24,000 nucleotides of DNA from Geminicoccaceae bacterium (GCA_050485385.1 JBJHBG010000005.1:5920-29919); one strand, 5' to 3'. Positions 1,011 through 20,600 are shown, counted from the first letter of the stretch. The notes: generated by a model not told the origin, from the sequence alone. Numbers and translations: made by a program.

Positions 1011-1038
1011 GGTTCGCTCCCTACGTCGTTGGTACTTG

Positions 1039-1077: not shown

Positions 1078-1089
1078 AGGATCGTTGGG

Positions 1090-2106: not shown

Positions 2107-2240
2107 GCTTGCCTCCCTGATCGTGTCCGCCGGTGGGTCGTTCGGCTCGGCCGGCAGACGTTGGCCTCTCCCTTGGCTTCGGTGCTTGCCATCGACCGGG
2201 TCGGTGGTGCCCGGCGACAGCGAGACGGTCGCATTGGAAA

Positions 2241-2284: not shown

Positions 2285-2311
2285 GCGTGCGTCACGAATG
2301 CAACGCCGCGG

Positions 2312-2995: not shown

Positions 2996-3063
2996 GGTTC
3001 CACCCTTTCCGATTCGGCGTCGCCGGTGCACGGGTACAGTGATGGTTCTCATAGCTTCCGCGT

Positions 3064-3093
3064 TTGACACCTGTCAATTTTATCGATATTTCC
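3064..3093 (+). promoter_or_regulatory. Candidate sigma70-type promoter (TTGACA-N17-TATTTC) overlapping a perfect inverted repeat TTGACA-CC-TGTCAA and an ATCGATATT motif
   Basis: TTGACA is at 3064-3069 and TGTCAA at 3072-3077; these are exact reverse complements. TATTTC at 3087-3092 follows the TTGACA after a 17-nt spacer. TATCGATA at 3081-3088 is an 8-bp palindrome. The site lies in the divergent gap between the GntR start (2995) and the FAH start (3127). No transcript data are available. Confidence 0.4.
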
Positions 3094-3126
3094 GTGCTAA
3101 CGATCAGAAAAACGAGGATATGGCAC

Positions 3127-4011: not shown

Positions 4012-4047
4012 GCGTAACTTTTGACCTTAACTGCGAGGACCAAGGCG

Positions 4048-5034
<987 letters not shown>

Positions 5035-5096
5035 CCCCAACGGGCGCTGGCTGCCATGCCGGCCTTGCCCCAACCGAATCAGGGAGGCCAACCCCC

Positions 5097-6029
5097 ATGC
5101 CCCAAGGCAGCTACACCGCCCCCGACGTGGAGGTGAAGAGCGAGGAGTACGTCGCCAAGAAGGGCGACGTCGACCTCTACGTCTTCCGCAAATTCGCGCC
5201 GGCCGTCGCGCGGCGCGGCGTTCTGGTCCTCGTCCACGGCTCGTCCGTCTCGGCGCGCACCTCCTACGACCTCGATGCCGGCGATCTCGGCGAATACTCG
5301 GTCATGAACGTCTTCGCCCGCTGGGGCTGGGACGTCTGGACGATGGACCACGAGGGCTACGGCCGTTCCAGCCGCACGCCCGGCTTCTCCTACATCAAGG
5401 ACGGCGTGGAGGACCTGCGCGCCGCCATGCCCATCGTCGAGGAGCAGACCGGCCAGACCACTTATGCCTTCTTCGGCACCTCCTCCGGCGCGATTCGTGC
5501 CGGGGCCTTCTGCAACGCCTGTCCGGAGCGGGTCGAGCGGCTGGTGGTGTCGGCCTTCCCCTGGACCGGCAAGGACGCACCGTCCCTGATCAAGCGGCGG
5601 CAGCGTCTCGACGAATGGCAGGCGACCAACCGTCGTCAAGTCGATGCCGACTACTACAAGCAGATGCTCACCCGCGACATCGTCGGCCTCACCGAGCCGC
5701 AAATGGGCGAGATCGTCGCTGCCAACGAGCTGAAGAACGGCGGCGACAGCGTGCCGAACGGCACCTACGTCGACATGTGCATCAACCTGCCGCTGGTCGA
5801 CCCCGAGACGATCACCTGCCCGGTCTTGATGATTCGGGCGGAGCACGACGGCATCACGACCGACGAGGACAACGCCGCCTTCTATGCTCGGCTGCCGACC
5901 AAGGACAAGCACTTCGTCATGATGTCGGGCCAAGCCCACAACATCACCTTCGGCGTGAATCGCCACCGGTTCTGGTACGCCTTGCGTTCGTTCCTGGAGT
6001 TTCCGGCCAGGGTCGATAATTTGCAGTGA
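5097..6029 (+). CDS. Alpha/beta-fold hydrolase (substrate unknown)
   Basis: 310-aa ORF with a GGGAGG RBS upstream of the ATG at 5097. It has an HG oxyanion-type motif (LVLVHGSS), a nucleophile elbow G-x-S-x-G (FGTSSGA), a late acidic residue (RAEHDG) and a His (GQAHN), in the order expected for a Ser-Asp-His triad. Confidence 0.8.
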   Translation: MPQGSYTAPDVEVKSEEYVAKKGDVDLYVFRKFAPAVARRGVLVLVHGSSVSARTSYDLDAGDLGEYSVMNVFARWGWDVWTMDHEGYGRSSRTPGFSYIKDGVEDLRAAMPIVEEQTGQTTYAFFGTSSGAIRAGAFCNACPERVERLVVSAFPWTGKDAPSLIKRRQRLDEWQATNRRQVDADYYKQMLTRDIVGLTEPQMGEIVAANELKNGGDSVPNGTYVDMCINLPLVDPETITCPVLMIRAEHDGITTDEDNAAFYARLPTKDKHFVMMSGQAHNITFGVNRHRFWYALRSFLEFPARVDNLQ

Positions 6030-6034
6030 CGGAA

Positions 6035-6066
6035 GGGCGGCATTCGGCGCGGTGCGGATGCCGCCC
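6035..6066 (+). other. Stem-loop (9-bp perfect stem, 14-nt loop) just after the hydrolase stop codon
   Basis: GGGCGGCAT at 6035-6043 pairs with ATGCCGCCC at 6058-6066. No U-tract follows. It could be an attenuator or a stabiliser between the hydrolase gene and tctB. Confidence 0.4.
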
Positions 6067-6167
6067 ACAGCGAGGCCGGCGTCCAGAATCCGGCCCGCAT
6101 CAGGGAGGGAAGCAAGCGTGACGCAGCACCGATCCGCGCCAAGTGTGGCCTGCGCCGGGAGCCGGCG

Positions 6168-6683
6168 ATGGCGGTGAACGACGGCGGCGACGCCGCGCGG
6201 CCAAAGCGCCCGCTCGGCCAGGACCTGGTCATCCCACTCGGCGGGGCCGCCTTCGCGGTCTACTACCTGGGGACCGTTTGGGAACTGCCCTGGCAGGCGT
6301 CGTCGACCGGCATCGCGATCATCTCGGCGATGGCGGTGCTCCTGCTGCTCCTCTTCTTTCGCTTCGCCCGCGAGCTGATCCGGGGCGAGGCCGATCTGCG
6401 CTTCGGCGACCTCGTCCATCCCTACCCGGTCTTCGCCCGGCGCGTCGGCGTGCTCCTGCTCGCGCTCGCCTTCATCTATACGATGGCCTATCTCGGCTTC
6501 ACCATCGGCCTGTTCGTGTTCCTCATGCTCGGCTTCGTCCTGCTGTCGGGCTTCGCACATTTGCGCCAGGGCCTGGTGATCGCCGTGCTGGTCTCCATCG
6601 GCGGCTATCTCCTCTTCATCCTCTTCGTTCGCGCGCGCTTCCCTTTGGGGCCGTTCGAGCGGTTCGTCGCGTCGTTCTGGTAG
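6168..6683 (+). CDS. tctB: TTT small membrane subunit, TctB family
   Basis: 171-aa hydrophobic protein with about 4 predicted TM stretches. It sits immediately upstream of tctA, and its TAG stop at 6681-6683 is 12 nt before the tctA ATG. A GGGAG RBS lies 6 nt upstream of the ATG at 6168. Size and position are typical of TctB. Confidence 0.8.
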   Translation: MAVNDGGDAARPKRPLGQDLVIPLGGAAFAVYYLGTVWELPWQASSTGIAIISAMAVLLLLLFFRFARELIRGEADLRFGDLVHPYPVFARRVGVLLLALAFIYTMAYLGFTIGLFVFLMLGFVLLSGFAHLRQGLVIAVLVSIGGYLLFILFVRARFPLGPFERFVASFW

Positions 6684-6695
6684 GCGGAGATCACG

Positions 6696-8207
6696 ATGGG
6701 CTGGGACACGGCGCTCTTCTTGGACCTCTTCGTCCGCTCCCTGTCGTTCTGGTGGGTGATCATCCCGGCGGTGCTGCTCGGCACCGTCGTCGGGGCCGTC
6801 CCCGGCTTCAGCGCGGCCAACACCATCATCATCCTGCTGCCGCTGACCCTCGCCATGGACGTCGAGGCCGCGCTCATCTTCATGATGGCGCTCTACTGCG
6901 CGAGCCAACTCGGCAACGGCATCCCGGCCATCCTCGTCAACATACCGGGGACGGGAGGGGCGGCGGCGACCACCCTCGACGGCTACCCGATGGCGAAGAA
7001 CGGCGAGGGCCAGTACGCGCTGGTCGTCTGCTTCGTCGCGTCCGTGATCGGCGGCCTGATCGGCACCGTTCTGGTGATCGCAGCGCTACCCTGGCTCGCC
7101 CAGGTCGGCTACGTGCTGCACAGCGTCGAGATGGTGGTGATCATGCTGTTCGGCCTGACGCTGATCGCCGCGATCGCCGCCCAGGACATGCTGAAGGGCC
7201 TCTTCGCCGGCATGCTCGGTCTGTTGATCGGCGCCATCGGCACGGACCACGTCTATTCGACGCCGCGCGCCACCTTCGGCTTCATCGAACTCTACGACGG
7301 CGTGCCGCTGGTGCCGGCGCTGATCGGCCTGTTCGCCGTGTCGGAAGCCTTCGTCATGATCGAGCGCTACCGCATCGTCTCCAAGGAGGGCGAGCAGAAG
7401 GCGCGGCACGGCGGTTGGGGCGAGACCATCGGCTACGTCTTCGTTTCGCTCAAGCGGTGGTGGCTCATCACGTGGTCCGCGGTGATCGGCGTGGTGATCG
7501 GCATCATTCCGGGGGCAGGAGCCAGCATCGCCTCGTTCGTCGCCTACCAGCAGGCACGCACCTATTCGCGCGAGCCCAACCGCTTCGGCCATGGCCACCC
7601 CGACGGTGTCGCGGCACCCGAAGCCGCCAACAACGGTGTCACTTCGGGCACGCTCGTGCCGCTGATGGCGATCGGCGTGCCGGGCGGTGCGACCGCCGCG
7701 ATCATGATGATCGTGCTCCAGTACCACGGCGTGACACTAGGGCCGCGGCTGTTCGTCGATCGGCCGGAGTTGGCCTATGGCGTGTTCATCGCCATGTTCG
7801 TCGCCTACGTCTTCATGATCTTCTTGATCCTGCCGCTGGCCCGCTACATGGCGCGGGTCACCCTGGTGCCGACGCATTTCCTGGTGCCGCTGATCATCGG
7901 TTTCACCACGGTCGGCGCCTTCGCGCCACGCGGGTACCTGTTCGACATGGTGCTGGCGCTCGCCTTCGGCGTGCTCGGCTACGTCGCCCGCAAGACCGGT
8001 TACCACGTCACCGCCATCCTGATCGGCATCATCCTCGGCCCCTTGATGGAGCAGTACATGATGCGCGCGCTCAGGATCGCGCAGGGTGACTTCACCGTGT
8101 TCTTCAGCTCGAACATCGGCAACGTGCTCTGGGTAGCGCTCGTGTTCTCGCTGGTGCTGCCCTACTGGCGCGAGCGCCGTCGCCGGGCGCTCGCCCCGGC
8201 CGAGTAG
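6696..8207 (+). CDS. tctA: TTT large permease subunit, TctA family
   Basis: 503-aa polytopic membrane protein with TctA-type motifs: GTVVGAVPGFSAANTIIILLPLT, GIIPGAGASIASFVAY and GIGVPGGATAAIMM. A GGAGA RBS sits at 6686-6690. Confidence 0.9.
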   Translation: MGWDTALFLDLFVRSLSFWWVIIPAVLLGTVVGAVPGFSAANTIIILLPLTLAMDVEAALIFMMALYCASQLGNGIPAILVNIPGTGGAAATTLDGYPMAKNGEGQYALVVCFVASVIGGLIGTVLVIAALPWLAQVGYVLHSVEMVVIMLFGLTLIAAIAAQDMLKGLFAGMLGLLIGAIGTDHVYSTPRATFGFIELYDGVPLVPALIGLFAVSEAFVMIERYRIVSKEGEQKARHGGWGETIGYVFVSLKRWWLITWSAVIGVVIGIIPGAGASIASFVAYQQARTYSREPNRFGHGHPDGVAAPEAANNGVTSGTLVPLMAIGVPGGATAAIMMIVLQYHGVTLGPRLFVDRPELAYGVFIAMFVAYVFMIFLILPLARYMARVTLVPTHFLVPLIIGFTTVGAFAPRGYLFDMVLALAFGVLGYVARKTGYHVTAILIGIILGPLMEQYMMRALRIAQGDFTVFFSSNIGNVLWVALVFSLVLPYWRERRRRALAPAE

Positions 8208-8237
8208 GCCCCTCCACCAACGCGCAGCGACTGCCAT

Positions 8238-8285
8238 GCCCCGGCGCCGTCCTAACCCCTGAACGGGGCTGGATGGCGCCGGGGC
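8238..8285 (+). terminator. GC-rich hairpin downstream of tctA (possible intrinsic terminator without a clear U-tract)
   Basis: GCCCCGGCGCC at 8238-8248 pairs with GGCGCCGGGGC at 8275-8285, giving an 11-bp stem. The loop contains a small inner CCCC/GGGG hairpin. It starts 31 nt after the tctA stop. The downstream sequence TTGCTGCG is only weakly T-rich. Confidence 0.35.
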
Positions 8286-8334
8286 TTGCTGCGTTGGCGT
8301 GCACCCGCGCCAAGCGCGCCCCGCCCGGCTTCGT

Positions 8335-8518
8335 TCAGATTTGCTGATCCTCTGAATAAAATTGCTTTAAACGTTGCTGTAAATTCTTCTTCAATAAGCG
8401 GCGTGATTCAAACAATATATAAACCAATTGAAAGCGAAAACTGTTGTCGCCTTAGGCGTTTATACTTAACAAGCCTTTATACCGCAAGGGTGGCCAATGC
8501 CACCGAGAGGAGAAGGCA
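8335..8518 (+). promoter_or_regulatory. Anomalously AT-rich leader/promoter region upstream of the rpfF-like gene
   Basis: I counted 43 G+C in the 120 nt from 8341 to 8460, about 36%, against GC-rich surroundings. It contains:
- TTGCT three times (8341, 8362, 8374)
- an inverted repeat TTCAGA (8334-8339) / TCTGAA (8351-8356)
- a direct repeat TTTATAC (8459-8465 and 8476-8482)
- a hairpin GGTGGC-CAAT-GCCACC (8489-8504) just before the RBS GAGAGGAGAAGG (8505-8516)
I could not place a convincing -35/-10 pair. Confidence 0.5.
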
Positions 8519-9478
8519 ATGTCGACGTTTCAGGCCAAGCGCGATGCTATCGCCCTACCGTTGAACGACAACCTCGCAGCTAGCCGTATCGGTGAGATCA
8601 CGGGGCGCGGCGTCCTGTTTCCGCAAGAGCCGGCCGAGTTCGATTTCCGCAGCTACGACTTCCACCATTTGGCGCTCGACTACGAGGCGGAGATCGGGGC
8701 GCTGTGGATGCGGTTCACGCACCCGGGCCGACCCTGTTTCACGCCGGGGCTGCTCGGCGAGATGCACGAGTTGGAGCGGCGGCTCAGCGGTGCCTCCGCC
8801 ATGGGCGCGCTGCCGGCCAACCTGCACTACCTCGTCCGCGCCTCGTCGCGGCCGGGCGTGTGGTGCTACGGCGGCGACCTCGCGCGGTTCGTCGAACTCA
8901 TCCGCACGGGCGACGAGATCGGGCTGCGGGCCTATGCCCATCGCTGCGTCGACCTGCTGTACCGCAACTACCGCAGCTTCGATCTGCCGATCACGACCAT
9001 CGGTCTGGTGCAGGGCGACGCCCTCGGCGGCGGGTTCGAGTCGCTCCTGTCGGACGACCTCATCATCGCCGAGCGCGGCGTGCGTATGGGCCTGCCCGAG
9101 ATCCTGTTCAATCTCTTCCCGGGTATGGGCGCCTACAGCTTCCTCGCCAGGAAGCTCGGCTCGGCCGCGGCCAAGCGGATGATCACCTCGGGCGAACTCT
9201 ACACCGCCGAGGCGCTGCACGAGATGGGCGTGGTCGACGTGCTGGCCGAACCCGGCTGCGGCGAGGAGGCGTTGCGCACCTATGCGCGCAAGCACGCCCG
9301 GCGGCGGCGGACCAACGAGGTGCTGCGCGACGTCGACCGGCGCTGCCTGCCCGTGACCCACGAGGAGCTGATCGACGTCACCGAGCTGTGGATCGAGCGG
9401 GCGCTCGAGCTGGATCCGCAGGACTTGCGGAAGATGGAACGGCTGGCGCAGAGCCAGGCCCGTCAGGGGCTCCACTGA
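8519..9478 (+). CDS. rpfF: Crotonase-fold DSF-synthase-like protein (RpfF family enoyl-CoA hydratase/thioesterase homolog)
   Basis: 319 aa. Sequence blocks match my recollection of X. campestris RpfF:
- WCYGGDLARFVELIRTGD (cf. FNLGGDLALFCQLIREGD)
- GLVQGDALGGGFESLLSDDLIIAERGVRMGLPEILFNLFPGMGAYSF (cf. ALVQGNALGGGFEAALSCHTIIAEEGVMMGLPEVLFDLFPGMGAYSF)
- C-terminal LRKMERLAQSQAR (cf. LRTMDRLVRAQSR)
Two Glu residues lie 20 positions apart (E174 at nt 9038-9040, E194 at nt 9098-9100), like the RpfF catalytic pair. A strong RBS is present. Confidence 0.85.
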   Translation: MSTFQAKRDAIALPLNDNLAASRIGEITGRGVLFPQEPAEFDFRSYDFHHLALDYEAEIGALWMRFTHPGRPCFTPGLLGEMHELERRLSGASAMGALPANLHYLVRASSRPGVWCYGGDLARFVELIRTGDEIGLRAYAHRCVDLLYRNYRSFDLPITTIGLVQGDALGGGFESLLSDDLIIAERGVRMGLPEILFNLFPGMGAYSFLARKLGSAAAKRMITSGELYTAEALHEMGVVDVLAEPGCGEEALRTYARKHARRRRTNEVLRDVDRRCLPVTHEELIDVTELWIERALELDPQDLRKMERLAQSQARQGLH

Positions 9479-11852
9479 CGGCATGCCGCGACTGGAAGAC
9501 GCGCAGCGCCTTGGCCGTGGCGGCGAAGCTCTGGCGAACCTCGCGGGCGATGGCGGCGGCCTCGCGGGCCAATGCCGCATCGCCCAGCGCCTTGGCGTCG
9601 AGGCAGCGGGCGAAGACGGCGGTGGCACCCAGATGGGTGGCGGCGCTGCGCAGCGCATGGGCGGCGTCGCGGAAGGCGCCGACGTCGCCCGTGACGGCCG
9701 CTGCGTCGAGCTGGTCCAGGAGCGCTTCGCCGTCGACGATGAAGTTCTCGATCACCGAGGCGACGAAGCCGTCGTCGTCGTCGAGGCCGACCAGCATCTC
9801 CAGCCGGCGCCGGTCGAGGGCCACCTCGACGGCCGCCGGCTCGCCCGCCGCTTCGGGCAGCGTCGTCAGCCGGTCCAACTCGGCCAGGAGGCGCCAGCCC
9901 TCGACCGGCTTGGTCAGATAGGCATCGAAGCCGGCGTCGGCCGCCGTGCCGCGGACCGCGGGTGTGGCGTCGGCGCTGAGCGCCAGGAGGCGTGGCCGGT
10001 CCGGCCGTTCGCGCAAGGCCCGCGCCACGTCCAGCCCGCCGCGCACCGGCATGTTGAGATCGAGCACGGCGACGTCGAAGCGCTGTGCCGCGATCCGCTC
10101 CAACGCCTCGGACCCGTCCTCCACCAGCACCACCCGATGGCCGACGCGGCGCAGCAGCCGCTCCACCACCTGCTGGTTCACCCGGTTGTCGTCGGCGACC
10201 AGCACGTCGAGTGACCGATCGGTGCCGCGCACCCGCTGCCCGCTCTCGTCGACGGGCAGCGGGTCGGCGGTGAGCAGGGCGGCACGGATCACTCGGCGAA
10301 GCGACGCCGGCTCGGGCGTGGGCTCCAGGACGGCGAGCGCATCCGCCACGTCGGTGCAGCCGAGCACGACGAGGTCGCGGCCCACGCGCCGCTGCGGCGG
10401 CGCCGCTCCAGCGCCCTCCAGCCAGAGGTCGACGACATGGGCCGCGGGGGTCGACTGCCCCTCGCCCGCCGCAGGCAGCCAGGGTACGCCCAGCCGGTTC
10501 AACAGCGCGCGCTGCTCGGCACTCGGCGTGCCATGCACGACGACGGCACCGGCGGCCGGCGTCTCGTCGCCCTCGGCCGGTGCCACCGGCAGGGTCACCA
10601 CGAAGCGGCTGCCGCCCGACGGCGCTTCCTCGAGCACCACCGAGCCGCCGGCGTTCTCGGCGAGCCGCTTGACGATGGCGAGCCCCAGGCCGGAGCCGCC
10701 ATAGCGCCGCGTGATGCCGTCGTCGGCCTGGGTGAAGCTCTCGAACACCCGCTTGCGGGCTTCTTCGGGAATGCCGACGCCGGTGTCCTCGACGACGAGT
10801 TGGAGCCGGTCGCTGCCGCCGGCTCCGTCGGCGCGGCGGATCGTCAACGTGACGCTGCCGCGCTCGGTGAACTTCAGCGCATTGGCGACGAGGTTGACGA
10901 GGATTTGGTACACGGCGCGGCGCGGGCCTTCGACGTGCGGCGGCAGCGTCGGATCGATCCGCAAGCGCAGGGCGAGGCCCTTGCGCCGGGCCTCGTGGTC
11001 GAGCAGGTCGCGCACGTCCTGGGCTAGGCCATGCACGTCGAAGGGCGTCGGAGGCAGGCGATCCGCGCCGGCTTCGATCCGGGCAATGTCGAGCACGTCC
11101 TCGATCAGGTTCAACAGCCCGTGCCCGGCGCCGTGGATGGTGCGCGCCATCTCCCGCTGGTCGGCGCGCAGCGGCGTGCCGCGCAACAGCTCGGTCATGC
11201 CGAGGATCGCGTGCAGCGGCGTGCGCAACTCGTGGCTCATGGTGGCAAGAAAGCGGCTCTTCGCTTGGCTGGAGGCTTCCGCCCGCCGGCGCGCGTCGTG
11301 CAATTGGGTCAGCAGCCTGAGGCAGTAGGCCGGGATCAGAATCAGCGCCAGGACGAGGCCGACGTTGAAGGCGCCGAGGCTCCGCCAGAAGGGACTGAAG
11401 GCGATCAGGAGCGTGAACAGGGTGGTCGAGATCAGGGCGGAGCCGATGAGGTAGCCGCGGCCGTAGCGAAAACCGTGGCCGAGCGTCACCCACAGGAGCA
11501 GCGGGTAGAGGAGGGCCGTGGACGGTCCGCCGACCGCCATGCCGATGACGATGCCGGCGTGGTCCACCAGCATGGAGGCGCTGCGCCTGGATTTGTGGAC
11601 GCGTGGGTCGGCCACGATCCAGGCGAAATGGGCGAGCGACACGGCGAAGACGACGAGTGCCAGCTGCAAGGGGCTCGGCACCCACCAGGTCGGATGGGCG
11701 GCGGGCATCGGACCCAAAAGCGCGTAGACCACCAGTGCGCCGACGATGACGATGCGGACCAGGGCCTGCTCGTGCTCGGTGTCGCCGCGCGCGGAAAGCC
11801 GGTCCACCAGGGCGGCGAAGAGCCGCCGCAGCCGGTGGAGCGGCGCCGTCAT
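9378..11852 (-). CDS. Hybrid sensor histidine kinase with RpfC-like architecture (polytopic membrane sensor - HisKA - HATPase_c - REC - HPt)
   Basis: The track ORF 9378-12479 is trimmed to the ATG at 11852-11850. That ATG overlaps the upstream gene's TGA (11851-11849) as ATGA. The product is 824 aa.
- aa 25-185: 5-6 hydrophobic helices with no periplasmic domain
- H-box: SRFLATMSHELRTPLHAILG (His207)
- G-boxes: VEDTGVGIPEE and YGGSGLGLAIVKRL
- REC: LVADDNRVNQ..VAVLDLNMP..YLTKPV (Asp598)
- HPt: FRDAAHALRSAATHLGA (His732). Confidence 0.9.
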   Translation of the reverse strand: MTAPLHRLRRLFAALVDRLSARGDTEHEQALVRIVIVGALVVYALLGPMPAAHPTWWVPSPLQLALVVFAVSLAHFAWIVADPRVHKSRRSASMLVDHAGIVIGMAVGGPSTALLYPLLLWVTLGHGFRYGRGYLIGSALISTTLFTLLIAFSPFWRSLGAFNVGLVLALILIPAYCLRLLTQLHDARRRAEASSQAKSRFLATMSHELRTPLHAILGMTELLRGTPLRADQREMARTIHGAGHGLLNLIEDVLDIARIEAGADRLPPTPFDVHGLAQDVRDLLDHEARRKGLALRLRIDPTLPPHVEGPRRAVYQILVNLVANALKFTERGSVTLTIRRADGAGGSDRLQLVVEDTGVGIPEEARKRVFESFTQADDGITRRYGGSGLGLAIVKRLAENAGGSVVLEEAPSGGSRFVVTLPVAPAEGDETPAAGAVVVHGTPSAEQRALLNRLGVPWLPAAGEGQSTPAAHVVDLWLEGAGAAPPQRRVGRDLVVLGCTDVADALAVLEPTPEPASLRRVIRAALLTADPLPVDESGQRVRGTDRSLDVLVADDNRVNQQVVERLLRRVGHRVVLVEDGSEALERIAAQRFDVAVLDLNMPVRGGLDVARALRERPDRPRLLALSADATPAVRGTAADAGFDAYLTKPVEGWRLLAELDRLTTLPEAAGEPAAVEVALDRRRLEMLVGLDDDDGFVASVIENFIVDGEALLDQLDAAAVTGDVGAFRDAAHALRSAATHLGATAVFARCLDAKALGDAALAREAAAIAREVRQSFAATAKALRVFQSRHAVSGAPDGPGSAPAVPSSASPADPARAPARSTAR

Positions 11853-14032
11853 CGCCGGGTCGGCAGCGCGATGACAGGGGCCGAGGGCCGGCCGTCGAGG
11901 AAGCGGGCCTCGAACGCGTCCGCCGGTACCGGCGGGCTGAAGATGAGACCTTGCACGGCGTCGCAGCCCATGTCCTCGAGCAGGGCCAGCTGATCGGCGG
12001 TCTCGACCCCCTCGGCGACGACGCTCAAGTCCAGCTTGTGGCAGAGCTGCACGATGCCTTCGACGATCGAGCGGTCGCTCTTGCTGGTCGGTAGGTTGTG
12101 GATGAAGCTCTGGTCGATCTTCAGCTTGCTGACCGGCAGCCGGCGTACGTAGGAGAGCGAGGAGTACCCAGTGCCGAAGTCGTCGAGCGAGAGCCCGACG
12201 CCGAGTTCGTGGAGGCGCTTCAGGCTGTCGAGTGCCGTGTCGGCCTGGTCGATGACCGAGCTCTCGGTCAGCTCGATTTCCACCTTGGTCGGATCGACGC
12301 CGGTGGCCAGGAGGAGGCGTTCCACGGCGTCGTCGAGACCGGGCGCTCGGAACTGGGTCGGCGAAATGTTGATCGCGAGGCGGGTGTCGTAGCCGTTGTC
12401 GTGCCATCCCTTCAACGTAACCAGGGCCTTGCGCATGACGAGGTTGGAGAGCGAGGCGATGAGCCCCAACTCCTCGCACAGCGCGATGAACTCGCCGGGC
12501 ATGACCAGGCCGCGCTTCGGGTGCTGCCAGCGGACGAGCACCTCGGCGCCGAGCAGGTGACGGTGGCCGAGGCCGATCTGCGGCTGGTAGTGCAGGACGA
12601 ACTGCTCGCGGGCGAGCGCGTCCCGCAGATCGCTCTCCATGGTGACCAGCCGCGAGGCCGAGACGTTCATGTCCTGGGCGTAGAACCGATAGTCGTCACG
12701 GCCCGCGGTCTTCGCCCGGTACATGGCAAGCTCGGCCTTGCGGGTGATCTGGTCGGCATTGCGGCCGTCGCGCGGGATCATGGCGATGCCGAAGCTGGCG
12801 CCGGAATGGGTCTCGCGGCCGCGGATCATGAACGGCTCGGCAAAGGTCTCGCGCAGCCGGCCGACCAGTTCGACCACGTCGTCGACGCGGCGCAGATCGG
12901 TGGCGAGGATGGCGAACTCGTCGCCGCCGAGCCGGGCGAGGGTATCGCCCTGGCGAAGGCAACGGGCAAGGCGTTGGGCCACGGCGAGCAGTAACTCGTC
13001 GCCGAAGCTGTGGCCGAAGACGTCGTTGACGCTCTTGAAGCGATCGAGGTCGAGCAGGACGAAGGCCGAGATGTCGCCCGTGCGGCGGCTGCGCGCACCC
13101 TCCTGCTGCAACCGGTCCATCAGCCGGTCGCGGTTGACCAGCCCGGTCAGACGATCGCGATGGCGGGCCTCTTGAAGCTGCCGTTCGGCGCGGCGGATGT
13201 CGGTGACGTCGAGACCGACGCTGATCACTTCCGTCACCTGCCCGGCCGCGTCGAAGATCGGCGAGCGCGTGCTCAAGAGCAGCCGCTCGCCCGCCATCGG
13301 CGTGCGCACGTCCTGCTCGCTCGCCGGCAGGGGCTGGGCGGTGTCGAATACCTTGGCGTTGAGCAGGCTCTCCTGATCGCCGCTGCCGCCGGCCATCACC
13401 TCCGCCGCGTGCTGGCCCACGGCGGCATCGCCGAACAGCCGACGCCAGTTCTGGTTGGCGAGCGTGATGCGCCCGTCGCGGTCGGTCGCATGCACCGTTG
13501 CCGGAAGCTGGTCGAGCAGGTGGAACCACTGCGCCTGCAACGCCGCCGTGCGCGAGCGGTCGAGCTGGAGGGTGGCCTCGAGGCTGCGCGCGCGCTCCTC
13601 CAAGAGCTTCTGCTGGCGTCGCAGCGTCAACAGGTTGCGGGCGCGGGCGCGGAACTCCAGGTGGTCGACGGGGCTGAGCAGGAAGTCGGTGGCGCCGGCT
13701 TCCAGCGCACGGTAGCAGTAGTCTCGGTCCTCGTAGACCGTTATGACCACGATCGGCGTCTCGTCGCCCCCCGGCAGGGCACGGAACGCGGCGATGAAGG
13801 CAGCCCCGTCCATATGCGGCATCTTGTAGTCGGTGATGACGAGGTCCGGGATCGTAGTCTGCGCCGCCCGCAGGGCCTCGAGCGGATCGCCGAAGGCTTC
13901 CACGTGCAGGCCCTCCTCCACCGACGCCGCGAGGCGGGTGAGGATGTTGCGGTTCGTGATCCGGTCGTCGAGGACGAAGACGCGGGACACGTTCGCTGCG
14001 GAGGTCGGGGCGTCGGCGCCGTCGGTAGCCAC
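11849..14032 (-). CDS. Response-regulator c-di-GMP enzyme: REC-PAS-GGDEF-EAL
   Basis: 727 aa with a GTG start at 14032-14030.
- REC: VFVLDDR..LVITDYKMP (Asp68)
- PAS-like segment at about aa 165-285
- GGDEF domain with an intact RLGGDEF (aa 367-373) and an RxxD I-site (RQGD, aa 360-363) exactly 5 residues upstream
- EAL domain with EVL (aa 497-499), EIELTE, DDFGTGYSSL, KIDQSF, EGVE and QG
Both catalytic domains therefore look competent. Confidence 0.9.
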   Translation of the reverse strand: MATDGADAPTSAANVSRVFVLDDRITNRNILTRLAASVEEGLHVEAFGDPLEALRAAQTTIPDLVITDYKMPHMDGAAFIAAFRALPGGDETPIVVITVYEDRDYCYRALEAGATDFLLSPVDHLEFRARARNLLTLRRQQKLLEERARSLEATLQLDRSRTAALQAQWFHLLDQLPATVHATDRDGRITLANQNWRRLFGDAAVGQHAAEVMAGGSGDQESLLNAKVFDTAQPLPASEQDVRTPMAGERLLLSTRSPIFDAAGQVTEVISVGLDVTDIRRAERQLQEARHRDRLTGLVNRDRLMDRLQQEGARSRRTGDISAFVLLDLDRFKSVNDVFGHSFGDELLLAVAQRLARCLRQGDTLARLGGDEFAILATDLRRVDDVVELVGRLRETFAEPFMIRGRETHSGASFGIAMIPRDGRNADQITRKAELAMYRAKTAGRDDYRFYAQDMNVSASRLVTMESDLRDALAREQFVLHYQPQIGLGHRHLLGAEVLVRWQHPKRGLVMPGEFIALCEELGLIASLSNLVMRKALVTLKGWHDNGYDTRLAINISPTQFRAPGLDDAVERLLLATGVDPTKVEIELTESSVIDQADTALDSLKRLHELGVGLSLDDFGTGYSSLSYVRRLPVSKLKIDQSFIHNLPTSKSDRSIVEGIVQLCHKLDLSVVAEGVETADQLALLEDMGCDAVQGLIFSPPVPADAFEARFLDGRPSAPVIALPTRR

Positions 14033-14166
14033 TACCGCTCTCGTTGCAAAATTTCGGAAAATTGTCGGTCAATACAACATAAACGCGAACGCCCTGGGAA
14101 AAAAGCGCGAATTCCGCGAGTTGGCCTCCGGCTGGCGCACGCCGAGGTACTGCTTGGCGGGGGCGG
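14033..14166. promoter_or_regulatory. Divergent intergenic region between the GGDEF-EAL/kinase operon and the Nudix gene
   Basis: A 134-bp gap, relatively AT-rich at 14041-14110 (TTGCAAAATTTCGGAAAATTGTCGGTCAATACAACATAAAC). It contains a near-palindrome CGCGAATTCCGCG (14107-14119). I cannot assign exact promoters. Confidence 0.4.
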
Positions 14167-14598
14167 ATGAGCGCGCCGCCGCCAAGGCGGCCGAGTATCG
14201 GTGTGGGCGCTGTCGTCTGGCATGGACCCTGCGTCCTCTTGATCCGTCGTGGCAAACCGCCCCGGCTGGGCGAATGGAGCCTGCCGGGTGGGCATCAGGA
14301 ATGGGGCGAAACCGTTGAGGAAGCGTTACGCCGCGAGGTGATCGAGGAGACCGGGCTCGTGCTGGGCCCGTTGCGGCTCGTCGAGGTGGTCGATCTGATC
14401 GAGCGCGACGCCGACGGGGCGACGCAGCGCCACTTCACGCTGCTCGACTACACCGCCGCCGCAATCGGCGGCACCCTTGCCGCCGGTAGCGACGCCGCGG
14501 CCGCGGCCTGGTTCGAGCCGGACGAACTCGAGCGGTTGCCGTTGTGGTCGCGCACGCGCGACGTGATCGGCCGAGCCCGCCTGCTCGTCCCGGTCTGA
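14167..14598 (+). CDS. Nudix hydrolase
   Basis: 143 aa. The Nudix box GX5EX7REUXEEXGU is recognisable in GGHQEWGETVEEALRREVIEETGL. Confidence 0.8.
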   Translation: MSAPPPRRPSIGVGAVVWHGPCVLLIRRGKPPRLGEWSLPGGHQEWGETVEEALRREVIEETGLVLGPLRLVEVVDLIERDADGATQRHFTLLDYTAAAIGGTLAAGSDAAAAAWFEPDELERLPLWSRTRDVIGRARLLVPV

Positions 14599-14609: not shown

Positions 14610-15047
14610 TCAGCGTTCGCCGGTGCCGTTGTCGGGGTTGACCAGGGCGCGCGCCAAGCTGCACAACGCCTCCTGGTGCTTGCGGTTGGGGATCGCTGCG
14701 AAGTTGCGCGCGAGTTCCAGCAACATGCGCTGTTGCGGCAGCAACTCCGGCTTACGTCCCTCGCCGTCCTGCTGCACCACGTCGTCGTAGAAGTAGGCGA
14801 TGTCGACGCCGAGTGCCTGGGCGATCTGGTAGAGCCGTCCGGCCGAGATGCGATTGATGCCGGTCTCGTACTTGTGCGCCTGCTGATAGGTCACGCCGAT
14901 CAGCTCGGCCAGTTGCTGTTGGGTCAGGCCGAGCATGATGCGACGCTGCCGGATGCGCAGGCTGACGTAGCGGTCGACGTCGACGGCCCGCCCGCGACCG
15001 CCGCCGGACGGCGGAATTTCAACCTCGGCACGAACACTGCCCGTCAT
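14610..15047 (-). CDS. XRE-family HTH transcriptional regulator (PraR/PhrR-like small alphaproteobacterial type)
   Basis: 145 aa with a GGAGAG RBS upstream of the ATG at 15047-15045. The HTH_3 core is IRQRRIMLGLTQQQLAELIGVTYQQAHKYETGINRISAGRLYQIAQALGV. A helical C-terminal tail (LLELARNFAAIPNRKHQEALCSLARAL) resembles the tail I remember in PraR/PhrR-type regulators. Confidence 0.8.
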   Translation of the reverse strand: MTGSVRAEVEIPPSGGGRGRAVDVDRYVSLRIRQRRIMLGLTQQQLAELIGVTYQQAHKYETGINRISAGRLYQIAQALGVDIAYFYDDVVQQDGEGRKPELLPQQRMLLELARNFAAIPNRKHQEALCSLARALVNPDNGTGER

Positions 15048-15164: not shown

Positions 15165-17528
15165 TCAACGCGCGGTAGAGGCCGGCACCAACCGCAGCGT
15201 GCTCCGCGGCCGTGTCGGCGGCGCCATCGGCACATCCTCGCCGCGATGCCAGAGCCGGGTCAGATCGTCGTAGTGCGGCGAGAGTGGATGGCCGACCTGA
15301 CCGGAGGCGGCGACGAACCGCGACGCCGCCATGTTGCCGAGGTCGACGATCAGCCGCAGGCCCGGGCCGTGCTCGCTCGGAAACAGCGGCGGCGCTGCGG
15401 CCGGGCGGTAGGCGTGTGCGGCTAGAGCCGTGCCGTCGCCGCCGACGCCGAGGCGGCGGTCGACGAAACGGCCGAGCGGACCCAGCCGGCCGAGGGGCTC
15501 GTGCATCATGATCGTCGGATGCTGCCGTGCCCACATCCAAGCCTCGCCCTCGGAACCGAGGGCCGAAGCGAGGCGGTCGAGCGCGTCCTCGAGGGCGCGG
15601 CCGAGGATGGTCGGGCAGTCCTCGACGACGGCGGTGCGAATGTCGTTGCACCAAATCTGCCGCTCGCCGAGGGCGCGCGCGACGAAGCCCGCCCGTTGGC
15701 CGCGATAGGCGTCGAACAGCGGTCCCAACTCGTCCTTGTAGAGGTGCTCGGCGAGCACGTCGTACCACATGGCGAAGACCGTCGGCTCGCGGGCCTCCGG
15801 CCGGGCGACGCGGTCCCAGGCGGCGAGCCGGTCGCGCCAGGCGAGGGCGTCCGGCCGTTCGGTCGCCGCTTCCAGCATCGCCGGCAACAGGCTGGCCGCC
15901 AGCCCCGAGCGCAGGTCCTGCTGCATGGCGCGGAAGCTGGCGACGTCGTGCGGCCCTCGGTCGAGCAGATCGACGATCCGCTCCATGCGGAACGGCTCGT
16001 CCCAGCGGTGGCCGAGGCGATGCGGGAAATCAGCGTCGACCAGTGCGTTGTTGGCGTTGGCGAGCCAGCCAGCGGGCGGATCGACGGCACGCGGCAGCTC
16101 GGCATGGGGGACGGTTGCCATCCATTCCCCGCCCGCCTGCCAACCGGGCGTCGGTAGGGTGCCGTCGCCGTTCGCCCGGATCGGCACGCTGCCGGCCGCG
16201 ACCATGCCGATGCGGCCGTCGACGTCGGCGTAGAAGACGTTCTGCTGCGGGTCGGCGAACGCCTTCAGGGCGGCATCGAAGCTCGGCCAGTCGTGGGCTC
16301 GGGCGAGGCGGACCCCGGCTTCGACCGGTGCGCTCGCGGGATCGAGTGCGGTCCAGCGCAGCGCCAGCGTGCGGCCGTCCCCGGCGAACGTCCGCGCGCC
16401 GGCTGCGAGGTCGGAGATCAAGGGACCGTTCACGCTCCAACGGACGGTGAACGTCTCGTCCGGGCAGAACCGGCAGCGGATCGTGGTCGTGTCGACGCGC
16501 AACGGCGCCAGCACGCCCGTGGGCGTGCGGGTGGCGTCGCCGACCACCTCCTCGATGACGAGATCCTGCACGTCGCTGCCGGTGTTGGTCATGCCCCAGG
16601 CGATGCGGTCGGTGCGGCCGAGCACGAACACCGGCAGCCCCGGCAGCGTGGCGCCGACGACACGGGCCTCGGGCGTGGCCAACCCCGCGAGGTACCAGGC
16701 GCCCGGCAGGCTCTGGCCCAGATGCGGGTCGTTGGCGAGGAGTGGCGCGCCGCTCGTGGTGTGGCGGCCGTCGACTACCCAGGCGTTGGAGCCGAGACCC
16801 GAGGGCGGCGCCGGCGGCAGGGCTTGGGCGAGGCCGTCGAGGTCGAGCGTCCGTGCCGCCTCGCGCAGCGTCCCGAGCGTGGTGGGCGCCGTCGCCGGAT
16901 AGCCCGGAAAGAGGTCGTCGAGCCGGTCGTGCGGCAGGTGCTGGGCGAGGCGCGCGCGCAACAGCTCGTCGGGCCAGCCGGTCGCGAGGTCGAGCGCCTT
17001 GAGCTTGCTCCACACCACCGCATCCACAGCGGTCCAAGGCTCGGGCCGGTGCCAGAGGAGCCAGAACTCCGGCGGCAGCGGCCGGCCGTCGGTCAGGAGG
17101 AACGCGTTGATGCCGGCGACGTAGGCGTCGACCTGATCGCGGGCTTCGATGGACAGCGCATCCAGGCTCGCCGCCGCCAGCTCGTGCAGGCGCAGCAGCC
17201 GCACATAGCGATCGAGCGGCAGGGCGGCGGCGCCGAAGACCTCGGCGAGGCGCCCCTGGCCGATGCGGCGGCGCAGCTCGAGCTGCCAGAGGCGGTCCTG
17301 GGCATGCACCCAGCCGAGGACGAACGCACCGTCACGAAGGCTCGCCGCCTGGACGTAGGGGATGGCCCAGCCGTCGCGGTCGACCGTGGCGGGGGCATGC
17401 AGGCCGGGGACGACGACCTCGCCCGCATGGCGGGGCAGCGAGGCGAGGAGCAGCCAGCCGAGGGCGATCGTCCCGGCCAGTCCCAGCGTCAGTCCACCGC
17501 CGGCCAGCCGGCAGGCCCATCGCCTCAT
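15165..17528 (-). CDS. Penicillin acylase family (S45) Ntn-hydrolase; candidate acyl-homoserine-lactone / fatty-acyl amide acylase
   Basis: The start is trimmed to the ATG at 17528-17526 (MRRWACRLAGGGLTLGLAGTIALGWLLLASLP, a signal or anchor) with a GGGGAG RBS, giving 787 aa. The autoprocessing and nucleophile motif G-SNAW (GLGSNAWVVDGRHTTSGAPLLANDPHL; Ser codon at 16790-16788) is diagnostic of the family. Confidence 0.9.
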   Translation of the reverse strand: MRRWACRLAGGGLTLGLAGTIALGWLLLASLPRHAGEVVVPGLHAPATVDRDGWAIPYVQAASLRDGAFVLGWVHAQDRLWQLELRRRIGQGRLAEVFGAAALPLDRYVRLLRLHELAAASLDALSIEARDQVDAYVAGINAFLLTDGRPLPPEFWLLWHRPEPWTAVDAVVWSKLKALDLATGWPDELLRARLAQHLPHDRLDDLFPGYPATAPTTLGTLREAARTLDLDGLAQALPPAPPSGLGSNAWVVDGRHTTSGAPLLANDPHLGQSLPGAWYLAGLATPEARVVGATLPGLPVFVLGRTDRIAWGMTNTGSDVQDLVIEEVVGDATRTPTGVLAPLRVDTTTIRCRFCPDETFTVRWSVNGPLISDLAAGARTFAGDGRTLALRWTALDPASAPVEAGVRLARAHDWPSFDAALKAFADPQQNVFYADVDGRIGMVAAGSVPIRANGDGTLPTPGWQAGGEWMATVPHAELPRAVDPPAGWLANANNALVDADFPHRLGHRWDEPFRMERIVDLLDRGPHDVASFRAMQQDLRSGLAASLLPAMLEAATERPDALAWRDRLAAWDRVARPEAREPTVFAMWYDVLAEHLYKDELGPLFDAYRGQRAGFVARALGERQIWCNDIRTAVVEDCPTILGRALEDALDRLASALGSEGEAWMWARQHPTIMMHEPLGRLGPLGRFVDRRLGVGGDGTALAAHAYRPAAAPPLFPSEHGPGLRLIVDLGNMAASRFVAASGQVGHPLSPHYDDLTRLWHRGEDVPMAPPTRPRSTLRLVPASTAR

Positions 17529-17694
17529 CCGTCGCTCCCCGCGTGCTTCGCTGGGGAGGTGACAGGTGTGGACGGCGCCGGCGATGGGCCGAAAGTCGGC
17601 TTGTGGTCGATGCAACTTATGGTTAATGAAGGCCGATTGTCCGCCGGGCAGCGCGCACCCGGCCCTTTCCCGTGCGCACCAGGATCTACGAGAT
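17529..17694. promoter_or_regulatory. Divergent intergenic region between the acylase and adhesin genes
   Basis: A 166-bp gap with a local AT-rich patch (CAACTTATGGTTAATGAAGGCCGATTG, about 17612-17638). Promoter positions are not resolvable from sequence alone. Confidence 0.3.
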
Positions 17695-20600
17695 ATGGCC
17701 AGCTCCGCATCCGCCGTGCTGTTGGATCGCGCATCGCGCGATTACGCGCCCGCGCGCGCGACGCGGCCGGCGGAACGCGCGGCACCGCGCGCGGAGCGTT
17801 CGCTCGGCCGCGGTGAAACCCTGGCGATGGGCGGCCCGCTCACGGCCGCCTTCATCGGTCTGTTGCTGTTGCGCACCGACGAGGCGGCGGCGACCCCAGC
17901 CACGGTCGAGGGCGACGGCGCCGAGAGCGGCCGCCCGCACGCCGACCTGCCGTCCGCGCGCGACGCCGACAGTGCCATGGCGTCGCCGGCCGCGTCGCCC
18001 GGTGAGAGCGTCGTGCTGACGGCGGCCGACGGCGCCGATGCGGGCGACTTCGCGGCGCCCACCGGCGGCGGCTTCGGTGCCGAGACGACGGTGGTGGAGC
18101 CGACGACCTTGCCGAGCACGCTGACCGTGCTGGGGCCGGACGGGCAGCCGGTCGGTCTCGACACGGTGCTGTTCGCGGGCGGCGGTATCGAGCTGACCAT
18201 GGGCGATCTGGTCGGCATGGGCTTCCTTTTGCCGGACACGGAGCCGCTGCCCGACCTCCTGGAGCCGCCGCTCAACCCGACGGGCGTGTTCATCGACGCG
18301 CGCAACACCGGGTCGCTCGAGTTGGTAGGCACCGCGGCCGACGATGTCATCATCGGCAACGACCACGGCAACGTGATCCACGCCGGCGCCGGTGACGACT
18401 GGATCAGCACCGGCGGCGGCAACAACGTCGTCCATCTCGTGGCGGGCAACAATCAGGTCTTCGGCGGCGCCGGCAACGACACGATCCACGGCGGTGCCGG
18501 CAACGACACGGTGTTCGCAGGGGCTGGCGACGACGTCATCCACGGCGGCGCCGGCTTCAACACCCTGCATGGCGAGCAGGGCGATGACACCTACGTGATC
18601 GACGCCAGCCTGGCCGCGCTCGACAGCATCGTCGACCGCCACGGCTTCAACACGCTTCAGGTCGCCAACGCGACGCGGGACGACCTGCGCTTCGCCTACG
18701 ACCCAGCCTCGCAGACGCTCGCCATGTGGGTCGGCGACGGCCCCGGCGGCCTGCGCGCGGTGATCACGCAGTACGACCTGGTCGACTCGCAGTTCCGCCT
18801 CGTCGTCGACGGCGAGGCCGTGCGCATTCCCGACGTCGCCCTGGGGCCGCTCAACCACGCCCCCATCGTGCGCGCCGAACTCGGCGGTCTCGCCACCCTG
18901 GAAGGGCAGGCCTTCGCCGTCGTGGTGCCGATCGAGGACATCGATCCGGGCGAGGTCTTGACCTTCTCCGCCACACTCGGAGACGGCTCGGCGCTGCCCG
19001 CCTGGCTCACCCTGGATACGGCCACGGGCCAGTTGGCGGGCACGGCGGGCGCGGGCGACGTCGGTGTCTACGAGGTGCGCGTGGTCGCCACGGACAGCTT
19101 CGGCCTCTCGGCCGAGACCACCTTCACCCTCGACGTGGCGGCGGCACCGCCCGGCGGCGGCACCGATCCGCACCTGATCCTCGGCACGCCGGGCGCCGAC
19201 GTGCTCTACGGCACCGCGGCCGACAACACGATCTTCGGCTTCGGCGGCGACGACGTGATCTACGCGGTCGCCGGCAACAACGAGATCCACACCGGTTCCG
19301 GCAACAACACCGTCTACGGCGGCACCGGCAACGACACCATCTTCGGCGGCGCCGGCAACGACACGATCGAGACCGGCGGCGGCAACAACTACGTCTCGGC
19401 CGGCGGCGGCTTCAACCAGATCACCGGTGGGGCCGGCAACGACACCTACCACGTCGACTTTGCCGTGGTGGGCATCGACCGCATCGTCGATCAGGGCGGC
19501 AGCAACGTGCTGCTGCTCGACAACGTCGCCTTCGCCGACATCGACTGGGTGATCATCGACTGGTCGACGGTGCCGGGGGCCGACGCCACCGGCTTCGAGG
19601 TGCAGGGCTGGGTCGGCGGCAGCGCCCGTTTCGTGCTGGCGGACTTCGACCCTTCCCAGACCTCCTACAGCGTCCGCATCGGCGACGACACCTACGGCAT
19701 CCCGGGGCTGAACCAGGCGCCGCAGGTGGTGGGCGCGATGCCGAACGTCAGCATCGGCGTCGGCGGTGCCCTCGGCCTCGCCGTGCCGGCCGGCCTGTTC
19801 GTCGACCGCGACGCGGGCGACACCCTCACCATCGACGCCAGCGGCCTGCCCGACTGGATGGGCTTCGACGGTACCGGCTTCACCGGCCAGCCGGGCATCA
19901 CCGACCTCGGCGCCTACGAGGTCACGCTCACGGCGACCGACCCCGCGGGCCTCGCGGCCAGCACCAGCTTCACCGTGCAGGTGGTGGGCGAGAACCGGCC
20001 GCCGGTGGCGGGCGAAGCGCCGACGCTGCCCGAGGCGGTGCCGGGCGAGGCCTTTTCGTACATCCTGCCGGCGAGCCTGTTCGTCGATCCCGACTTCGGC
20101 GACGCGCTCACCTGGACGGTGGTCCAGGCCGACGGCTCGCCGCTGCCCGACTGGCTCACCTTCGACCCTGCGACGCGGACACTGAGCGGCACGCCCGACG
20201 CGGCCGGCCCGCTGGCGTTGAAGGCCGTCGCGACCGACCTTGCCGGCGCCAGCGCGGAGGTGGCGCTGACGCTGCCGGTCACGGTTCCCAACGCGCCGCC
20301 GGAGCCGGGGGCACCGCTGCCCGACCTCGGCGCGACGGCGGGCGAGGCCTGGACCGCGACCTTGCCGGCGGGCGCCTTCGTCGACCCGGACGGCGACGCC
20401 CTGACCTTCACCGCCACGGTGAACGGCGTGCCGGTCGCTGCCGTCGACTGGTTGCAGATCGACGAAGCGACCGGTGCCTTGAGCGGCACGCCCCCGGTGC
20501 CGGGCGCCTATCTGGTCGAGGTGGTGGCGATCGACGTCCACGGTGCGGCGAGTGCGCCCGTGGGCTTCACCCTGGCGGTGGCGCCGGCATCGCTGCCCGA

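Follow-up and report, generated by a model that had tools for sequence, protein, structure and literature searches.

A probable alphaproteobacterial rpf-type quorum-sensing locus whose regulator carries a PAS-GGDEF-EAL output in place of the HD-GYP output of RpfG

We analyzed a stretch of 24,000 nucleotides (nt) from a Geminicoccaceae bacterium (GCA_050485385.1, JBJHBG010000005.1:5920-29919), hereafter the window. Three adjacent genes at positions 8519-14032 probably constitute an alphaproteobacterial quorum-sensing locus of the rpf type, that is, one belonging to the DSF (diffusible signal factor) family, in which the regulator harbors PAS-GGDEF-EAL instead of the HD-GYP domain of RpfG. The domains and key residues of the three products are present and intact, the parts are homologous to their Rpf counterparts, and the three-gene arrangement is conserved in related genomes.

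The three genes had been proposed from the nucleotide sequence alone, in what we call the original prediction. The map of open reading frames (ORFs) of the window recovered all three at the same positions, with products of 319, 824, and 727 amino acids (aa), and the independent public gene calls on the same contig gave identical products. The genes are the following.

8519-9478 (+): RpfF-clade crotonase, putative DSF-family (cis-2-enoic acid) synthase, 319 aa, Pfam ECH_1
9378-11852 (-): RpfC-type hybrid sensor histidine kinase, 824 aa, Pfam HisKA/HATPase/REC/HPt
11849-14032 (-): REC-PAS-GGDEF-EAL response regulator, first gene of a two-gene operon, 727 aa, Pfam
11849-11852 (-): ATGA overlap of the regulator stop and the kinase start in the sequence, translational coupling

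The ATGA overlap bears out the coupled operon of regulator and kinase that had been predicted, and an identical 4-nt overlap occurs in nine related loci and also in the relative's locus L082. The kinase ORF starts at an ATG internal to a longer open frame. At their 3' ends, the crotonase and kinase genes overlap convergently by 101 nt (9378-9478), both in the window and in the independent gene calls. According to the ORF-extraction coordinates, the separation of these two genes in related loci ranges from a 22-nt overlap to more than 1 kb, mostly with gaps below 150 nt. The approximately 50 C-terminal residues of the kinase, beyond the HPt domain, are of low complexity and may represent read-through to the first stop codon.

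The likeness of the crotonase to RpfF was the first element of the original prediction, and it held. Pfam assigned the crotonase fold through ECH_1 (67.6 bits) and ECH_2 (38.2 bits), each above its cut-off. Compared with all PDB structures, the protein matched 7zq7 at 4.7e-53, RpfF of Xanthomonas campestris pv. campestris (Xcc; 3m6m) at 2.6e-49, Cronobacter RpfF (6dgn) at 1.5e-48, and Bcam0581 (5fus) at 1.9e-48. The best ordinary hydratase in the same search, FadB, reached 3e-13, far below the RpfF-family structures, and entry 5wyb, which we take to be DspI, reached 4.5e-12. The comparison with RpfF, Bcam0581, and housekeeping hydratases, which had been suggested as a check, therefore placed the crotonase on the RpfF side by a wide margin (1e-48 or better versus 3e-13). 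Both catalytic glutamates of RpfF are kept.

9038-9100 (+): catalytic glutamates E174 (GGGFE, 9038-9040) and E194 (GLPE, 9098-9100), from the alignment to 3m6m

In that alignment, with the 16-residue tag subtracted, E174 and E194 correspond to RpfF E141 and E161, and the pair is conserved in 84 of the 84 aligned family members. The crotonase also passes the NCBIfam model NF006452 (PRK08788), which has no functional name, at 333.6 bits against a cut-off of 177. A strict RpfF equivalog was rejected, as the cut-off of NF053515 was missed, and for this reason we term the protein RpfF-clade and not RpfF proper. Homologues are named "DSF synthase" by JGI. The nearest named relatives belong to the Geminicoccaceae, at 84% identity, and relatives at 66-84% identity have kinase and regulator homologues on the same contigs. 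On sequence grounds, the crotonase is thus placed in the RpfF clade.

The features of the kinase, in the order of the protein, are listed below.

11766-11789 (-): sensor motif R22-G-D-T-E-H-E-Q29, directly before the first transmembrane helix, matched to R15-Q22 of Xcc RpfC
11298-11765 (-): membrane-embedded input region, about residues 30-185, from hydropathy; about five apparent hydrophobic helices with short loops, apparently without a periplasmic domain
11067-11264 (-): HisKA, residues 197-262, Pfam 76.3 bits; phospho-acceptor His207 (11232-11234) in SHELRTP
10581-10919 (-): HATPase_c, residues 312-424, Pfam 100.4 bits
9879-10205 (-): internal receiver, residues 550-658, Pfam Response_reg 79.8 bits; Asp598 (10059-10061) and the canonical Lys648
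9534-9755 (-): HPt, residues 700-773, Pfam Hpt; His732 (9657-9659) in HALRSAATHLGA

The Pfam order HisKA, HATPase, REC, and HPt is that of RpfC, and His207, Asp598, and His732 are all positioned for a His-Asp-His relay. The Hpt score, 24.1 bits, lies slightly below the cut-off of 24.6 (E = 4.3e-5); His732 is present in the window kinase, and most kinase homologues have a precomputed Hpt match. Residues 1-190 gave no Pfam match. The helix count of the input region is approximate; in the hydropathy profile, Kyte-Doolittle peaks near residues 40, 69, 100-108, 145, and 170 indicate about five segments.

In Xcc, DSF binds to the 22-residue N-terminal sensor of RpfC, and within R15-A16-D17-S18-E19-H20-A21-Q22, the residues R15, D17, S18, E19, and Q22 are essential for binding, with an S18T substitution being functional (Cai et al. 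2017, PMC5391125). The window kinase retains all five positions as R22, D24, T25, E26, and Q29, with Thr at the Ser18 site. RxD[ST]EHEQ was found in 118 of the 120 database homologues of the kinase, and the motif can be aligned in the fetched loci, also in kinases that have an HD-GYP regulator as partner. Homologues at 54-58% identity are named "sensor histidine kinase RpfC" by JGI, and the top stand-alone REC match of the kinase REC in the PDB was the REC of RpfC (3m6m_D, 3.9e-18). The residues quoted by Cai et al. and the RpfC REC chain in 3m6m served as stand-ins for the full-length Xcc RpfC and RpfG sequences. Judged by its sequence, the kinase is RpfC-like, as predicted, and the assignment is firmer than one from domain order alone because the mapped DSF-binding residues are kept.

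Two classes of the sensor motif were observed among the kinases of the 80 related loci described below (L001-L080). Class 1, RxD[ST]EHEQ with [IV]R after it, was seen in the window, the Geminicoccaceae, and the HD-GYP-linked loci; class 2, RPD[ST]EHEM with NR after it, is that of Hyphomicrobiales, Acetobacteraceae, and Inquilinus. The Met at the position equivalent to Q22 in class 2 hints at a different ligand or binding mode.

The regulator is where the locus departs from the known scheme. Pfam gave 251.9 bits for EAL, 152 for GGDEF, 73.7 for Response_reg, and 41.9 for PAS_4, and the domains are distributed as follows.

13643-13981 (-): RpfG-type receiver, residues 18-130, Pfam; D21/D22, phospho-acceptor D68 (13829-13831), and T98 kept
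13193-13531 (-): PAS, residues 168-280, Pfam PAS_4
12695-13162 (-): GGDEF domain, residues 291-446, Pfam; GGDEF motif at 369-373 (12914-12928)
12944-12955 (-): I-site RQGD (RxxD), residues 360-363, motif intact
11930-12631 (-): EAL domain, residues 468-701, Pfam; E497-V-L, N, ExxE, DDFGTGYSS, K, EGVE, and QG all intact

The original prediction of a REC-PAS-GGDEF-EAL protein in place of an HD-GYP one, with intact diguanylate cyclase, I-site, and phosphodiesterase motifs, was thus confirmed, with the detail that the EAL motif itself reads EVL. EVL variants such as that of VieA are active. Among the 120 regulator homologues, all of which carry ExLxRW, 11 have EVL. Neither an HD nor an HD_5 domain was detected in the regulator by Pfam, and no HD-GYP signature was found in any frame of the window. 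The receiver is 41-50% identical to the receivers of REC-HD-GYP partners and 51-76% identical to those of GGDEF-EAL partners, but only 24-35% identical to the kinases' own REC domains (tblastn). Because its receiver is homologous to the receivers of the HD-GYP partners, the protein is best described, from the comparison of domains, as an RpfG-type regulator with a swapped output domain. The nearest solved relatives of the GGDEF-EAL module are MorA, MucR, and DosP, and the public names of the regulator homologues are generic (GGDEF/EAL/PAS) and never RpfG.

For the comparative analysis, a profile was built from 35 crotonase homologues, and one genome per species was scanned. This resulted in 80 loci, chosen on the crotonase only; the partners were found by tblastn with the window proteins and ORF extraction, and the output types were confirmed by Pfam. 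A kinase with a homologous input domain was present in 68 of the 80 loci, and in 65 it was convergent and within 1.5 kb of the crotonase. The remaining 12 loci had no kinase, and in seven of these, less than 6 kb of sequence was available 3' of the crotonase. Across the output types, the gene 5' of the kinase opens with a receiver homologous to that of the window regulator, and the following domains were found after it.

12 loci: HD-GYP; Methylophaga, Methylobacillus, Sideroxydans, Thioalkalivibrio, Zetaproteobacteria
35 loci: PAS-GGDEF-EAL; Geminicoccaceae, Acetobacteraceae, Inquilinus, Pseudovibrio, Rhizobium, Microvirga, Bosea, Pinisolibacter, Agaricicola, Breoghania, Propylenella, others
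7 loci (L030, L032, L045, L052, L053, L063, L065): PAS-HisKA-HATPase; other Alphaproteobacteria
2 loci (L018, L046): PAS-HisKA_2; Skermanella, with the gene on the opposite side of the synthase

The PAS-GGDEF-EAL loci, which are the commonest form among the 80 nearest species-level genomes, are alphaproteobacterial wherever the record was classified, and the HD-GYP fusions of this receiver occur in Gamma-, Beta-, and Zetaproteobacteria. The two output types are mutually exclusive, as the HD-GYP signature was found in none of the GGDEF-EAL loci. A canonical RpfG nearby, within the window or the GGDEF-EAL loci, was accordingly rejected. In a neighbor-joining tree, synthases with the same partner type cluster together; the clade of the Alphaproteobacteria stands apart from the HD-GYP-linked clades, and RpfF of Xcc and of Cronobacter fall outside both. 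This tree is distance-based and midpoint-rooted, and its topology is indicative only.

The association of the genes is not due to chance, because 68 of the 80 crotonase-selected loci have the kinase, and in 65 of them it lies convergent to the crotonase and within 1.5 kb. The survey of conservation that had been suggested for this arrangement therefore supports it, and the label "chimeric" in the original prediction does not apply: the arrangement with a GGDEF-EAL partner recurs in 35 of the 80 sampled species-level genomes, and the synthases cluster by partner type. The arrangement is a conserved, vertically maintained variant lineage and not a one-off mixture.

Some of the related loci showed peculiarities. 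In Roseomonas aerilata (L020), the partner has nothing beyond PAS. In Inquilinus limosus (L027:13722-15714, and also in L002), the RpfC-like kinase gene is separated from the REC-PAS-GGDEF-EAL gene by two tandem ORFs of 301 and 276 aa. Both L027 ORFs have an RpfC-type input (R-x-DSEHEM and the membrane bundle) and a degenerate HisKA stub without an ATPase domain, and they are similar to rpfH of Xanthomonas, a gene within rpfGHC for an RpfC-input-like protein. The locus L002 (NZ_VCCH02000095.1) is titled "Mycobacterium sp. KBS0706"; it is collinear with and closely similar to L027 of Inquilinus limosus, which suggests that this assembly is mislabelled or contaminated.

The known DSF systems provide the frame for these results. 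As core perception routes, only two are listed, RpfC/RpfG and RpfR; RpfG and (net) RpfR both act as phosphodiesterases, and the canonical gene order has rpfF convergent to rpfGHC (Ryan et al. 2015 review, PMC4504480). The window has that same order, with the synthase, the convergent kinase, and the regulator 5' of the kinase. The original prediction had considered the order different from rpfFCG due to the convergent synthase, and this was wrong.

The window locus shares with Xanthomonas campestris RpfF/RpfC/RpfG a synthase of the RpfF clade with both catalytic glutamates; a hybrid kinase in which a short N-terminal sensor with the DSF-binding residues and an apparent membrane bundle precede HisKA, HATPase, REC, and HPt; an operon, convergent to the synthase gene, in which the regulator gene directly precedes that of the kinase; and a regulator with a homologous N-terminal receiver and a C-terminal domain of the kind that degrades cyclic-di-GMP. 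It differs in the output, which is PAS-GGDEF-EAL and not HD-GYP, adds a sensory domain, and could in principle also make cyclic-di-GMP, and in the receiver, which has Ser for the conserved Lys. The synthase is only about 40% identical to Xanthomonas RpfF and scores below the NCBIfam equivalog cut-off. The window has no rpfH, although the Inquilinus relatives have rpfH-like genes, and no adjacent rpfB.

With RpfF-RpfR of Burkholderia cenocepacia and Cronobacter, the locus shares a synthase of the same clade (1.9e-48 to Bcam0581) and an output protein with a PAS-GGDEF-EAL core encoded convergently to the synthase. RpfR, however, works as a soluble one-component receptor whose N-terminal domain interacts with RpfF; it lacks a receiver, its PAS binds the fatty acid, and no kinase is needed. 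In the window, the regulator starts with a receiver instead, and the gene of an RpfC-type kinase separates those of synthase and regulator. The PAS of the regulator is also not specifically RpfR-like: a profile search of the PDB returned generic PAS matches (MmoS at 2.5e-13, BvgS, FixL), and the RpfR PAS (6dgg) had only E = 1.2e-3, near the bottom of the 60 matches listed and below many unrelated PAS domains. An RpfR-like receptor was therefore rejected, since the receiver replaces the RpfF-interaction domain and neither single-sequence nor profile searches gave a specific likeness to the RpfR PAS. The link to RpfR implied by the original prediction is not supported.

Two further types of locus were compared with that of the window. 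Clusters of rpfF-rpfG-rpfC have already been cited in genera found in our HD-GYP group (PMC4504480). The rpfF-rpfC-rpfG clusters of Methylophaga, Methylobacillus, Leptospirillum, and Thiobacillus belong to the same locus family; they were found with the same crotonase profile and have a common sensor motif and receivers 41-50% identical to that of the window; they differ by the HD-GYP output, the Lys or Arg of the receiver, and synthases outside the alphaproteobacterial clade of the neighbor-joining tree. The loci with REC-PAS-HisKA-HATPase partners (e.g., L030, L032, L052, L053) share the synthase, the kinase, the REC(Ser)-PAS front half, and the operon position with the window locus. Their output, however, is a second histidine kinase core, and the signal would pass by phosphorylation and not by cyclic-di-GMP.

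From these comparisons we propose the following mechanism. The RpfF-clade crotonase would make a cis-2-unsaturated fatty acid, namely a cis-2-enoic acid, from an acyl carrier intermediate, and the RpfC-type kinase would recognize it through its short N-terminal segment together with its membrane bundle. The kinase would then autophosphorylate on His207, and the phosphoryl group would be relayed via Asp598 and the HPt residue His732 to Asp68 in the receiver of the co-translated regulator. In the place of RpfG, the regulator would alter cellular cyclic-di-GMP. We infer that the likeliest effect is an EAL phosphodiesterase switched on at high signal, possibly against a basal GGDEF cyclase, and the PAS may add a second input.

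Phosphodiesterase activity is the likely core output of the regulator. This is favored because the EAL residues are invariant, with the catalytic ones kept in 36 of 36 aligned partners and ExLxRW in 120 of 120 homologues, while the GGDEF motif is sometimes degenerate (8 of 36 related partners; 19 of 120 in the database set, with 96 intact and 5 unscorable) and the I-site is kept in 47 of the 96 GGDEF-intact homologues. It is also favored because both the replaced HD-GYP and RpfR are phosphodiesterases (PMC4504480).

Several observations weigh against the proposal that this is a DSF-family locus with such an output. The crotonase reaches only 199.3 bits in the NCBIfam RpfF equivalog model NF053515, whose cut-off is 550, and no signal has been demonstrated for any member of the alphaproteobacterial clade. 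The comparison with the input domain of Xcc RpfC relies on the residues quoted in PMC5391125. In about half of the Alphaproteobacteria-type kinases, the equivalent of Q22 is Met, so ligand specificity may vary within the kinase family. The regulator receiver has Ser120 (13673-13675) in place of the usual conserved Lys, and its switching may be atypical due to the missing Lys. Finally, GGDEF and I-site are both intact in the window regulator, so that net cyclic-di-GMP synthesis or bifunctional, switch-like behavior is conceivable.

This last point leads to an explanation with the same wiring and the opposite sign, or with true bifunctionality, in which receiver phosphorylation activates GGDEF or flips the enzyme and high signal raises cyclic-di-GMP. 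The intact I-site points to a functioning cyclase whose product inhibition has been maintained, and GGDEF is intact in 28 of the 36 partners and in 96 of the 120 homologues. Against this, only GGDEF and never EAL has degenerated in the partners and homologues, just under half of the GGDEF-intact proteins keep the I-site (47/96), and the activity of the replaced HD-GYP, like the net activity of RpfR, is that of a phosphodiesterase (PMC4504480). We consider this explanation rather unlikely, though plausible. A more elaborate proposal is a widespread alphaproteobacterial DSF-family system with two layers of perception, the RpfC-type kinase at the membrane and, within the cell, the regulator PAS, which would bind the same lipid or a related one. 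Both layers would be integrated by a single bifunctional enzyme, merging the RpfC/RpfG and RpfR modes, and the change from Lys to Ser in the receiver would be an adaptation to dual control; we regard it as quite unlikely.

Another alternative concerns the receiver itself. The Ser at the Lys site (LSP) is present in 119 of the 120 regulator homologues and in every partner of the REC-PAS-X form, whereas HD-GYP fusions of the receiver retain Lys or Arg; the change co-occurs with PAS, which is always present in the Ser class. Since RpfR and RpfS sense DSF through PAS domains (PMC4504480), the GGDEF-EAL protein could be a PAS-driven enzyme with a pseudo-receiver, possibly binding the fatty acid directly as RpfR does, with the kinase signaling to a regulator elsewhere. 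Conservation of the acidic pocket, Asp68, and Thr98 speaks against this, as do the translational coupling and invariable adjacency of the regulator and kinase genes, the homology of the receiver to those of the HD-GYP partners, and the lack of a specific similarity between the PAS and that of RpfR. This makes the pseudo-receiver the least probable of the alternatives weighed here. It is also very unlikely that the locus does not serve cell-to-cell signaling at all, with the crotonase in a metabolic or membrane-lipid role and the kinase monitoring free fatty acids or membrane state, of its own cell or of other organisms, without density logic. Such a role would fit a crotonase that falls under the RpfF equivalog cut-off and matches a functionally unnamed model; our search of the full-text literature found no experimental work on the clade, and RpfF in Xanthomonas is reported to affect membrane integrity as well (PMC8659556). 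Nevertheless, the crotonase is paired with an RpfC-type sensor in 68 of the 80 loci and in several proteobacterial classes, the window has no fatty-acid metabolism genes, and both the glutamate pair specific to RpfF dehydratase/thioesterase chemistry and the DSF-binding residues of RpfC are kept.

The rpf-type reading with a swapped output would add a third, conserved DSF output architecture to RpfC/RpfG(HD-GYP) and RpfR, namely RpfC feeding a REC-PAS-GGDEF-EAL regulator. The original prediction did not recognize this combination as described, and the full-text literature, with subscription journals largely outside, likewise yielded no account of an RpfC partner with GGDEF-EAL and no characterized alphaproteobacterial Rpf system. 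The novelty is confined to the conserved output swap and its wide distribution because the synthase and kinase homologues already carry RpfF and RpfC labels from automated annotation. The pipelines thereby split the system: JGI labels the synthase and kinase ("DSF synthase", "RpfC"), and the regulator receives only generic GGDEF/EAL names.

Quorum sensing in Alphaproteobacteria is usually associated with acyl-homoserine lactones. If the locus is functional, quorum sensing by fatty acids would reach a class in which it has not been studied, and the carriers include cultivable Alphaproteobacteria such as Inquilinus limosus (a cystic-fibrosis isolate), sponge-associated Pseudovibrio, Microvirga, Bosea, Rhizobium, and Plastoroseomonas. 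Among the cultivable relatives, all three genes are present in Inquilinus limosus DSM 16000, Pseudovibrio denitrificans JCM 12308, Microvirga brassicacearum, and Plastoroseomonas hellenica. The family would also represent a natural experiment in output swapping, with HD-GYP, GGDEF-EAL, and histidine-kinase cores on the same receiver and a fixed sensor.

The non-coding features around the three genes are given below.

8208-8518 (+): intergenic region 5' of the synthase gene, from the ORF map; holds the sigma-70-like site
8334-8362 (+): weak sigma-70-like site, the sole one in 8100-14300; consensus scan, 1 found versus 0.2 expected, a consensus match only
14033-14166 (-): AT-richer region in the sequence, 5' of the regulator-kinase operon and divergent from the NUDIX gene

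The region 14033-14166 is presumed to be the promoter region of the regulator-kinase operon; no consensus promoter was called for that operon, and the promoter and terminator scan of 8100-14300 was uninformative there.

The genes adjoining the locus are a NUDIX gene at 14167-14598 (+), an XRE-type helix-turn-helix gene at 14610-15047 (-), and a gene of the penicillin-amidase (Ntn-hydrolase) family at 15165-17615 (-). Their synteny with the locus was found only in Geminicoccaceae-type relatives (L001, L006, L014, L042, L082). The amidase neighbor as a quorum-quenching acyl-homoserine-lactone acylase was unsupported, with 30 bits against the 950 cut-off of the PvdQ model. Due to this low score and to the synteny being confined to close relatives, the amidase gene is treated as lineage synteny, outside the signaling system.

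On the other side, 5' of the locus, the window (6-8207) encodes two TctC-like receptors along with an aldo/keto reductase, an alpha/beta hydrolase, a possible TctB, and TctA, the Tct genes being components of tripartite tricarboxylate transporters; the genes of 6-8207 are not kept beside the locus in relatives. Beyond the amidase gene, 17566-22446 (+) encodes a probable secreted adhesin of 1626 aa, in which seven He_PIG Ig-like repeats are accompanied by RTX calcium-binding repeats and a Big_9 domain. Adhesins of the RTX/Ig-repeat kind are often under cyclic-di-GMP control. In the relative's locus L082, type I secretion ABC and HlyD genes lie 5' of the rpf-like genes.

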